A DNA stretch of 27,295 bases from UHGV virus genome UHGV-0068847; one strand, written 5' to 3'. Made by a program: the position numbers. This stretch comes from a virus. The number at the start of each line of letters is the position of its first letter. Positions within the stretch are counted from its first letter, which is position 1. Below are positions 15,001-18,000 of the stretch, in pieces.

Positions 15001-18000
15001 GTTATTTGTCTAATGAAGGTATGAATACTTTTGTGCAATTGTTATTCGTATCCAATCATCAGGATCCTGACGGCACATACCATGGGGTATTTCCAGATAC
15101 CAAGGTTGGTATAAGTATGACTGAATACCTATACCAAAAAACTTGCTCATCATCAGAGAAGGCTAAGTCATTAAAACCAACCTGGTTGCATTGGCGACAA
15201 CAGGAAGCTCTGGAGCTAAAACGAAATCCCTTTGATATTTAAATTTGAGATTTACCAGCCCTGGCATTCGCCGGGGCTTTTTTATTTCAGGCTCACGGGA
15301 ATCATCCACGATACATATTGTTGATAAATCCAGCCCGTGAAGCCTGACCCTTTCATCACACAGCGCCATCCGAATAATCGGAGGTAGGGCTATGACCAGA
15401 ATGAGCACCATTTACAGCAGACTTTCATATGGATCAGGAACCACGCTTGCCGGCTGCGGTGTATCAGCGAAGGCATATGCCGAAACAGCTAAAACAGCAA
15501 AAGAGGTGTCCTGGATGTTGGCCGACAGAATTGCAGGGTTAAGCCTGAGCGACTGGGCAATTATTGTCGGTATCGCATGCACAGTTATCACTTGTGCAGT
15601 GAACTGGTATTTCCGCTGGAAAGAACGGGAGGATCGGCGCAATGGCTATGCCACCAAAGCTGAAGAATAAACTGAGCGCAGCGGTCGTTGGTTTGATTCT
15701 TGCGGGGGCTTCCGCGCCCGTGATTCTCGATCAGTTTCTGGATGAGAAAGAGGGTAACAGCCTGACAGCATATCGCGACGGCGGCGGAATCTGGACTATT
15801 TGCCGTGGCGCCACGATGGTTGATGGTAAGCCAGTAGTTCAGGGCATGAAGCTGTCTGCTGAGAAATGCGCCAAGGTGAACGCCATAGAACGCGACAAGG
15901 CGCTGGCGTGGGTTGAGCGAAATATCAAAGTACCACTGACCGAACCACAGAAAGCGGGTATTGCGTCATTTTGTCCTTACAACATCGGCCCCGGAAAATG
16001 TTTCCCTTCTACGTTCTATAAGCGCATTAACGCTGGTGACCGTAAAGGCGCCTGTGAAGCGATCCGCTGGTGGATTAAAGACGGCGGCCGCGACTGTCGT
16101 CTGACCAAAGGCCAGAAAAATGGGTGCTATGGGCAGGTCGAGCGGCGCGATCAAGAAAGTGCGCTGACGTGCTGGGGGATTGACCGGTGAGTCGACTAAC
16201 AAACATCATCATTACTGTGATCATCTGCATAATCTTATCTCTAGGCTGGGCCGTTAACCACTACCGCGACAACGCGATCACCTACAAAGACCAACGCAAC
16301 AAAGCAACTGAAAAGCTCAGCCTAGCTAACGTTACTATCACCGACATGCAAACCCGCCAGCGCGATGTCGCTGCACTGGATGCCAAATATACGAAGGAGT
16401 TAGCTGATGCGAAAAACACCATTAGCGGTCTACGTGGCGATGTTGAGTCTGGGCGCAAGCAGCTGCGCGTTGCAGCCGCCTGCAATAAAGTGCGTCAAAC
16501 CACCGACACCGCCAGCATGGATGATGCAACCGGCCCCAGACTTACTGACACCGCTCAACGGGATTATTTCACTCTCAGAGAGCGAATAGAAACTGTCACC
16601 AAGCAACTTGCCGGATTACAAGAATATGTCAGTGCGCAGAATTTAAAATGACTTGTCACCTATTTCGCTGTCTGATTAGTTATTCAATATTAGTTGGCAT
16701 AGCGTTAGTAATTAACTGCAATGGCTATGACTGCAATTAATTATGGCATCAGCTTTGCTTGATGAGGATGATGGATATTTTTCGGATAAGAATTTCTGTA
16801 TGTCTTCAACAGCTTCGATGCTGACTCTAATATTTGTATGGCCATTGTTTTTTAAATAATTAACTGCTTCATCTATAAGGTTGTTTTCTGATAGAAATTT
16901 GATAACAATGGCAAAGTTATCAACGCCGGTTTCGGTTAAAAGTTCACAGTTAGGCATGGTTGTTACTCCAGTGATGTAAATGAGATTTTATTTTGGATTG
17001 TTTTTTTATCAGCGTGGGTGATATGTTTGTATGATTTTTGAGGTTGCCTAAACACAAAAGTTGTATTCAAAGTAATCGAGCTAATTAGGGTGGGCCGCTG
17101 GTTTGGTAAGGTCAGGGGATTAACTCTTATTCTATTACCTTTCTGCGTTGCCATAACCATGGGCAGACCCATCGTAATGGTAGTTTTTGAATAGGCCGCT
17201 AATGAATTCATGGCGCATGGTTTTGGGAGGCGATTTGCAAGCAGGCATCTCGGACTTGTATCGCAAGACGAAGCCCTTCCTGAAATCTTGCTGATGCGTT
17301 GGGATCGTTTGCTGAATTTAGATAGACATTAAAAAGCTGCATGATGGTAACGCTATATGCTTGCTTAATAGCATTTTCAGTAATTGTTTCGTCCATCGAG
17401 AATCTCCTCGGTAGCATAGATGACAGGTTTACTTCCGTCTTACCATAGGTCATCAATGGGATTACTTTAATAGGAAAGAAGCATGAGCAAGCCGGACTGG
17501 GAGGTCATCGGGGCGGCGTACTGTGCCGGAGTGATGGCCCTCCGTGAAATTACATCGCAGCACGACATTAGTGAAGGGACAATGCAGAACCATACTAACT
17601 ACTGAGTGAGTGAAACAGACAATATCATCGGTAAGGATGATGGCAATAGCCCCCGACTTACTGACGCCGCTAAACGGGATTATTTCACCCTCAGAGAGCG
17701 AATCAGCACCATCACCGGGCAAGTGAGTTACTTACAGGATTACATCAGGCAGCAATGTTTGAAGTGAATGGCCGCTAGACTTAGCCAGCCATTTTAAAGA
17801 GTTAACCAACGGTTAATGTGGAAAGCAAATGCGAAGTTTCCCCAGAGCAGTTAACAGTGGTTTCGTTGTAAGGGAATTCACCCGTATACTCGCTATTTGC
17901 AGGGGGAGTCATTTTGTTAATCAATGCAGCTTCTGCGCGCACCCGATCATCTTTTCCAGTAATAGTAGCGACGGAATAGCAGAGAGTCTCACCGACCATT

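Follow-up and report, generated by a model that had tools for sequence, protein, structure and literature searches.

How did the first part of a terminase small subunit gene (terS) and, directly behind it, the last part of an Rz lysis gene come to lie as two truncated stubs between the lysis and packaging genes of a lambdoid prophage, and do these stubs serve any purpose there? The question is raised by UHGV virus genome UHGV-0068847, of which a stretch of 27,295 nucleotides (nt), here called the window, was analysed. It is a lambdoid (lambda-like) prophage of the Citrobacter freundii complex; the recorded source names for the exact window proteins are C. freundii and C. braakii. The initial annotation had invoked at least two exchange events, one replacing a P27/Gifsy-type packaging module by a lambda cos-Nu1-A module and the other inserting cargo genes via Rz homology. 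According to our analysis, the stubs are most probably the neutral scar of one illegitimate, unequal crossover between two phages. The features involved are (window coordinates):

16187-16651, plus strand: intact Rz (i-spanin), 154 amino acids (aa), with an N-terminal transmembrane helix; Pfam Phage_lysis E-value 1.4e-41 over residues 29-151, phrog_13 E-value 2.2e-67
16407-16589, plus strand: intact embedded Rz1 (o-spanin), 60 aa, with a signal peptide ending ...ASSC; Pfam Rz1 (PF06085) E-value 1.1e-17
16489-16651, plus strand: copy 1 of a direct repeat (3' end of Rz/Rz1); 113/163 positions agree, in register, with 17605-17767
17148-17482, minus strand: orf62 module (62-aa gene at 17208-17396, 60 nt downstream of this gene, 86-nt spacer to terS), with its left homology boundary at 17147/8 in every relative compared
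17483-17605, plus strand: orphan terS 5' stub of phrog_1206 type, 40 codons; phrog_1206 E-value 1.2e-11, 84-89% nt identity to the 5' ends of full-length terS genes
17582-17605, no strand: terS/Rz joint zone; terS identity collapses past 17581 and in-register Rz similarity runs from 17606
17606-17767, plus strand: orphan Rz 3' stub, copy 2 of the direct repeat, 53 codons from GTG, with a dead Rz1 frame; Pfam Phage_lysis E-value 1.6e-14, phrog_2934 E-value 1.9e-16

The 40-codon stub is, as had been proposed, a real terS N-terminus, from a family to which the resident Nu1 is unrelated. It aligns to positions 4-39 (out of 207) of the PHROG family phrog_1206 ('terminase small subunit') and retains the ribosome-binding site of the full-length homologues, which are 200-aa terS genes of Klebsiella phages (matched over their first 95-106 nt) and of Citrobacter and Enterobacter prophages. 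The homology spans 17472-17581, i.e. ~33 codons, and the final seven codons (MQNHTNY*) are not terS-like. The stub is not a full-length member of the family: its 40 codons are followed by the Rz fragment, versus 200 aa and then a 490-aa terminase large subunit (terL) in the relatives. The donor is not of the P27/Gifsy type that had been suggested: the full-length homologues belong to phrog_1206 (E-value 7.5e-95), and neither the stub nor the 200-aa homologue matches any Pfam terminase family, Terminase_4 (PF05119) included. The Terminase_4 gene of one related locus (L012; loci are given by our locus numbers) is a separate protein from the terS family of the stub. The exact 40-aa stub is present in 58 blocks of a public assembly collection.

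The second fragment repeats the last part of Rz/Rz1 in direct orientation, a claim borne out by the BLAST core (16519-16587 versus 17635-17703, 69 nt, 87% identical, E-value 6e-20) and by the score of 113/163 for the whole repeat, against a maximum of 69/163 in 200 shuffles. The two copies are 1116 nt apart and align in register with no gap, and both are terminated by an in-register TGA. The identity of 75-85% estimated earlier holds for the core only (79% over 16514-16606; 89%, 49/55, over 16535-16589), whereas the overall value is 69%; the two ranges given earlier (16535-16651 and 17636-17767) do mark a repeat, but with the register slightly off, as the partner of 16535 is 17651 and that of 17636 is 16520. 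The two Rz copies share no exact match longer than 16 nt, and this shortness may account for the stability of the repeat.

Copy 2 keeps both the Rz and the Rz1 frame, as described before, but neither looks like a working spanin. Its Rz frame ends QQCLK* and covers only positions 85-125 (out of 126) of the Pfam Phage_lysis profile (PF03245), i.e. the last third and not the whole periplasmic domain (the resident Rz, presumably functional, covers positions 1-124); the 53-codon open reading frame (ORF) starts VSETDNIIGKDD and has no hydrophobic segment, so it lacks an N-terminal transmembrane anchor. The Rz1 frame (17610-17726) has no signal peptide, no lipobox Cys and no stop of its own: the stop codon is lost and the frame runs on for seven codons. 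In public records the 40-aa and 53-aa ORFs are currently named 'hypothetical protein' and 'lysis protein', and both are best marked as pseudogene fragments. The profile and nucleotide matches of each stub agree with the earlier view that both are recombination remnants.

Such leftovers of Rz seem to have a family of their own. Both the Rz stub and the C-terminus of full Rz match the phrog_2934 family (63 aa, 'unknown function') from end to end; judging from these matches it seems to be made up of Rz C-terminal fragments, so short ORFs of the Rz C-terminus recur in phage genomes. We also noted orphan 'Rz1 lytic protein' ORFs downstream of complete lysis cassettes in Klebsiella phages (L002, 2471-2647; L003, 3831-3989). 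These were ruled out as the same kind of Rz duplicate, being dissimilar to the Rz genes of the phages that carry them, and appear to be left over from a different o-spanin family.

The order of the two stubs (terS' ending by 17605, 'Rz starting at 17606, both on the plus strand) had been described as inverted relative to a normal Rz-then-terS layout. It is instead the topology of a novel joint made by a single unequal crossover, and the layout of the left-hand parent can be read in other prophages. By looking up the more distant members of the orf62 family, we reached four loci of Citrobacter and Enterobacter prophages (L034, L036, L038 and L039) that are collinear with window 17148-17577 at 84-89% identity. 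Their order is orf62, an 84-86-nt spacer, a full 200-aa terS, a 490-aa terL, a portal gene and a Mu_F gene, and the whole is preceded, at a distance of a few hundred bases, by an Rz from the same Pfam family; L034, L038 and L039 show the left-parent layout. The terS stub is thus the start of a packaging module of the phrog_1206 type, and orf62 is the leftmost element of such modules.

A second, independent joint with the same order of stubs is found in L036, where 54 nt from the start of terS, which now include a stop codon, run into an Rz 3' end at a shared GATG. Beyond this joint L036 is collinear with L034 across the Rz tail (55/55 identical), a 77-aa gene, orf62 and a full terS; its right-hand parental layout is thus L034-like and the locus keeps its own full-length terS. 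We did not identify the left parent of the L036 joint. Other independent truncations of terS occur near nt 41 (L025, L029), near nt 46 (L042, L044), at 131 aa (L037) and at 170 aa (L010). In L037 (3521-3916) the terS is cut at 131 aa with terL and portal missing, and this locus looks like a degraded prophage of the parental type. The 170-aa protein of L010 (3211-3723; also in L015), which is truncated at its C-terminus and 70% identical to the Klebsiella phage terS, is another remnant of this terS family; it lies in the cargo region upstream of the shared core described below, so this phage has two orphan terS fragments plus a working Terminase_2.

The two stubs would thus be the two sides of one joint, formed by an ancestral illegitimate and unequal crossover between two collinear lambdoid phages. 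The left parent (lysis cassette, cargo, orf62 on the minus strand, phrog_1206 terS, terL, portal) would have been broken ~100 nt into terS. In the right parent the break would have fallen ~160 nt short of the end of Rz, and this parent would have contributed its Rz tail, downstream cargo and packaging module. With the left parent broken in terS and the right parent in Rz, the terS stub necessarily comes before the Rz stub. The hybrid would have had one complete lysis cassette, one complete packaging module and the cargo of both parents; the stubs would have no function, decaying and being kept as they are small and linked to orf62. Homologous exchange at conserved flanks, one of them an island within the Rz stub, would later have moved the orf62-terS'-'Rz core and swapped the surrounding cargo and packaging modules. 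That the joint arose in a single step, which recombination machinery acted and that orf62 is the selected passenger are all inferred. The two stubs share a reading frame, with one TGA between them (17603-17608), and the fusion may have been in frame when the joint was formed.

The same terS'|'Rz joint is found in L006, L008, L010, L012, L016 and L017, and every locus with the codon-34 joint seen here carries both stubs. At least six architectures share a core (17148-17522 or 17148-17704) with different flanking cargo, the shared sequence starting at 17147/8 in all relatives compared:

Window type: PF03245 Rz, 81-aa gene, core, GIY-YIG cargo, cos-Nu1-A
L008 and L016: phrog_214 spanin, other cargo, core, other cargo, Terminase_2
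L010 and L015: DUF2514 spanin, other cargo, core, Terminase_2
L012: core plus right cargo of the window type, then Terminase_4
L006/L018 (IMG/VR contig): same joint, Terminase_2
L017: same joint

The joint is therefore located upstream of three packaging modules, namely Nu1/A, Terminase_2 (L008, L010, L015, L016, L006/L018) and Terminase_4 (L012), which makes it older than its association with Nu1 and contradicts the idea that it was born when the phage gained cos-Nu1-A. Being identical in such varied contexts, it is one old event, inherited or transferred. The claim that the lysis-to-packaging interval is a cargo-swapping hotspot is supported by the same architectures. The Rz stub is a duplicate in the window, as had been stated, but an orphan in most of these phages, among them the relatives with a DUF2514 or phrog_214 spanin, and the direct repeat in the window is due to the type of lysis cassette that happens to lie to the left. 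An exact search with a 24-mer across the joint returned one IMG/VR contig and none of the GTDB species representatives; a single-nucleotide polymorphism inside the 24-mer in L012 shows that exact matching under-counts the joint.

These comparisons also bear on two other origins. An in-situ tandem duplication of the Rz-to-terS interval in one phage, followed by divergence, would give the observed topology, as a full Rz followed by terS' and 'Rz is what a tandem-duplication joint looks like; but the Rz copies are only 69% identical, their tails differ (33/59) and each resembles a different circulating allele, the cargo on either side of the joint is unrelated, the terS family of the stub differs from Nu1, and the upstream spanin is of another family in the relatives. 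This origin is already contradicted, and we regard it as highly improbable. The probability of an assembly or chimeric-contig artefact is negligible, and replication across assemblies refutes it: loci from nine or more separate assemblies (NCBI, ENA and Logan) carry 17148-17767 with 100% identity, the identical sequence occurs in independent isolate genomes as well as in metagenome assemblies, and one ENA contig is 100% identical to window 11483-23605 (12.1 kb).

Do the stubs still do anything? Against the most diverged alleles, L006 and L017, orf62 differs at 1-2 out of 189 nt (0-2 overall) and the spacer at 0-1 out of 86, versus 5-14 in the stubs. In the terS stub 5 and 13 out of 123 nt are changed, and 14 out of the 15 codons affected have nonsynonymous changes; the Rz stub has 13-14 changes in ~95 nt plus frameshifting indels in both alleles. 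The L017 stub is nearer to functional terS than the stub of the window, so it is the window allele that has drifted. This pattern of decay fits neutral drift. We conclude that both stubs are pseudogene fragments in decay, tied by linkage to a small conserved gene, orf62, with which the scars probably hitchhike. No Rfam family matches window 15000-20200, and promoter-like or terminator-like sites in 16600-19500 are not clearly above the shuffled expectation.

The linked gene, orf62, belongs to a small family of Enterobacterales proteins that are always 62 aa long and 82-95% identical, and is the conserved and probably selected unit. Its location on the minus strand, its conservation and its variable presence or absence among phages suggest a moron-type gene. 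An AlphaFold2 model of the protein is a helical hairpin (predicted local distance difference test, pLDDT, 89); the fold is generic and has no significant match in PDB. Apparent alphaproteobacterial relatives were rejected, as their matches span just 24-25 residues and were taken as chance.

Several results weigh against a neutral scar left by a single crossover. The breakpoint in the window is placed only within 17582-17605, no microhomology is demonstrable in this zone, and the right-hand parent of the window joint, expected to have a complete Rz matching the stub in its last 53 codons and then the GIY-YIG cargo, was not found: the pattern of an Rz tail followed by the start of the cargo, and the 141-aa cargo protein, have no match in IMG/VR, the exact 141-aa protein occurs only in loci of the window type, and a search of metagenomes yielded only environmental homologues of that protein with 37-53% identity. 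As to neutrality, four independent truncations of terS all keep at least 41 nt of the gene, and a cis element for orf62 in 17397-17522, upstream of that gene, could be under selection, in which case part of the stub would be non-neutral. Finally, a scan for consensus promoters of orf62 gave nothing above chance, so that it is conservation which speaks for orf62 as a selected passenger.

The first group of these points leaves room for two successive joins, with a small filler at 17582-17605: one exchange would have brought cos-Nu1-A and left the terS stub, and another would have inserted the cargo via Rz homology and left the Rz stub. Many further recombination events clearly happened in the interval and shaped the surroundings of the scar, which is in keeping with such a history. 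We nevertheless consider a two-step origin unlikely. The stubs are at most 24 nt apart and travel together with an identical joint in at least six contexts, including phages without Nu1; their order is predicted by one unequal crossover, and L036 provides a one-step joint with its right parent identified; and homologous insertion via Rz would leave no truncated copy of Rz. One unequal crossover, as illustrated by L036, suffices for the scar itself, and at least two events are not needed.

The second group bears on whether the fragments are functional, the 40-aa peptide or the terS 5' DNA (a possible pac/terS-binding site) affecting packaging of the phrog_1206 type or regulation of orf62. The terS stub retains a ribosome-binding site, the core is 100% identical in phages that differ by ~8% in their holin and lysozyme genes, and at least 41 nt of terS remain beside orf62 in each independent truncation. 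On the other hand, substitutions in the stub are almost all nonsynonymous, it diverges 5-10x faster than orf62, the truncation removes the predicted recognition helix of the N-terminal helix-turn-helix (judging from residues 18-40 of the full protein, which match Sigma70_r4 weakly), the L036 copy of the stub has an internal stop, there is no Rfam match and the promoter-like sites are at chance level. The chance that the fragments function in any of these ways is slight. We give an equally slim chance to a more specific version, in which the terS 5' end and the spacer keep a pac/terS-binding site of the phrog_1206 type or encode a decoy peptide; if true, the carrier of the orf62-terS' cassette could interfere with co-resident phrog_1206-type phages or have itself packaged by them, and this would explain both the complete identity of the cassette in diverged prophages and the terS remainder in every truncation.

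The preferred origin, one unequal crossover, was followed by exchanges of cargo, and one of these has left a trace inside the Rz stub. The relevant segments are:

16532-16589, plus strand: Rz/Rz1 nucleotide island, the last Rz1 codons overlapping Rz codons ~116-134; 87-90% mean pairwise identity
17648-17704, plus strand: the island inside the Rz stub; a later exchange of cargo crossed over at its 3' edge

Four full Rz alleles are 87-90% identical in the island versus ~50% in the tail; the island is kept conserved at the nucleotide level because Rz and Rz1 overlap there. The Rz stub or island is matched in 416 INPHARED phage records (nearly all of the 60 alignments listed cover the island only), and none of the 416 carries two copies of the island, as the window does. 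Compared with L008, L010 and L016, the window has no differences over 17241-17704 and then a different allele of the Rz tail (22/59 differences), and homology to loci of the L008 type is gone after the stop of the Rz stub. For the L008 tail, a full Rz of E. bugandensis agrees at 52/59 positions; the window tail is nearest to a Klebsiella phage Rz (43/59). The switch of alleles at 17704/17705 is the mark that a homologous exchange with its anchor in the island leaves, the cargo downstream moving together with its own Rz tail. Thus the suggestion that cargo was inserted via Rz homology was right in that Rz homology serves cargo exchange, but the site is the stub.

In experiments, Red-type recombinases exchange R-Rz-cos-nu1 between lambda and DLP12 across diverged homology (PMC3945230), and by analogy the allele switch of the window agrees with such Red-dependent exchange. 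De Paepe et al. 2014 (PMC3945230) described relaxed homologous recombination by Rad52-like recombinases of phages, with homologous recombination (HR) traces at mosaic borders. The window resembles their lambda Red x DLP12 case in the interval involved and in the diverged homology used as anchor, and the 17704/17705 switch is similar to an HR trace; unlike that system, it is known from sequence alone, and its anchor is an orphan Rz fragment with a longest exact identity of only 16 nt between copies. The Rz/Rz1 overlap, conserved by double coding, may be a ready-made homology anchor for swapping downstream cargo.

The phenomenon as such, lambdoid mosaicism, is known: homologous shuffling follows an illegitimate joint, here at the classical site of morons, between Rz and cos. 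This particular cassette and the reconstruction of its history are unsurprising, though they seem not to have been described. A phrase search of the literature for truncated or duplicated Rz gave nothing relevant. Hendrix, Juhala, Hatfull and colleagues reportedly put forward a model of lambdoid mosaicism by illegitimate recombination plus selection from HK97/HK022 comparisons. As in novel joints of that type, we see a sharp joint of unrelated sequences, tolerated leftovers between essential modules and 'morons' between lysis and packaging; but those joints lie near gene borders while this one lies inside two genes, and here the left-parent layout of the window joint and the right-parent layout of the L036 joint are readable, L036 supplying an independent joint with its stubs arranged alike. 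In lambda (the bor moron region) and in the cryptic prophage DLP12 of E. coli K-12 (rzpD/rzoD-borD-nohD), the comparable regions share with the window the position after Rz and before cos/Nu1, cargo transcribed against the late operon and the persistence of partial phage genes. The window differs from them in its cargo (orf62, a GIY-YIG-like protein and a membrane protein) and in its remnants, which are a foreign terS and a second Rz allele. The locus is a worked example of how cargo builds up, as one unequal crossover stacks the accessory genes of both phages between lysis and packaging; the diagnostic scar of such a crossover is a distal 5' stub followed by a proximal 3' stub, and the conserved unit to be annotated is orf62, not the stubs.

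Around this scar, ~2.6 kb of cargo separate Rz from a cohesive end of phi80 type. The remaining features of the late region are:

15392-15670: holin
15642-16190: lysozyme
16652-17147, minus strand: left cargo, with an 81-aa ORF at 16712-16957; only in loci of the window type and in L025
17768-19245: right cargo, with a 141-aa GIY-YIG-like protein (17802-18227, minus strand) and a 167-aa membrane protein (18648-19151, plus strand)
19304-19315, plus strand: phi80-type cohesive end (cosN); position 1 of phi80 records aligns to window 19304, 98.6% identity
19493-20038, plus strand: resident Nu1 of lambda/phi80 type; Pfam Phage_Nu1 (PF07471) E-value 1.7e-92, positions 1-164 of 164
20013-21935, plus strand: resident gpA, with GpA_ATPase and GpA_nuclease matches in identical loci

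The resident packaging region is 98.6% identical to phi80, starting at the cohesive end at 19304 (the first 12 bases of phi80 records are annotated as a 5' extension), and gpA overlaps Nu1. With a full-length profile match, a cos upstream and gpA downstream, the resident Nu1 is a member of the lambda Nu1 family. In phage mEp237 and in E. coli prophages that have the same holin, lysozyme and Nu1, homology to the window ends at 16185 and returns at 19246, immediately right of the cargo, so the variable segment takes in the spanin genes themselves. Three unrelated spanin families (the PF03245 Rz of the window, DUF2514 and phrog_214) are found behind holin and lysozyme genes that are 91-95% identical (window 16185-16190; L004, L005, L008, L010), and the mosaic boundary there is the stop codon of the lysozyme gene.

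Within the left cargo, the 81-aa ORF has no family match at the thresholds used. An 82-aa ORF (16963-17211, minus strand), which straddles the mosaic boundary at 17147/8 and has been called in some of the identical loci but not in others, is unlikely to be a gene. Searches of the cargo proteins against Pfam, PHROG, PADLOC and NCBIfam gave at most a weak GIY-YIG match and no convincing match to a defence system. That match (Pfam E-value 0.0019) is to the 141-aa protein, named 'GIY-YIG nuclease family protein' in Citrobacter records; the 167-aa protein has an N-terminal membrane helix and belongs to phrog_17948. In L012 (~7889-12123), window-like sequence continues through cos to window 19371 and is followed by a Terminase_4 terS, a 215-aa TerL fragment, an integrase and three AlpA genes; this insert may be a satellite-like element in terL.

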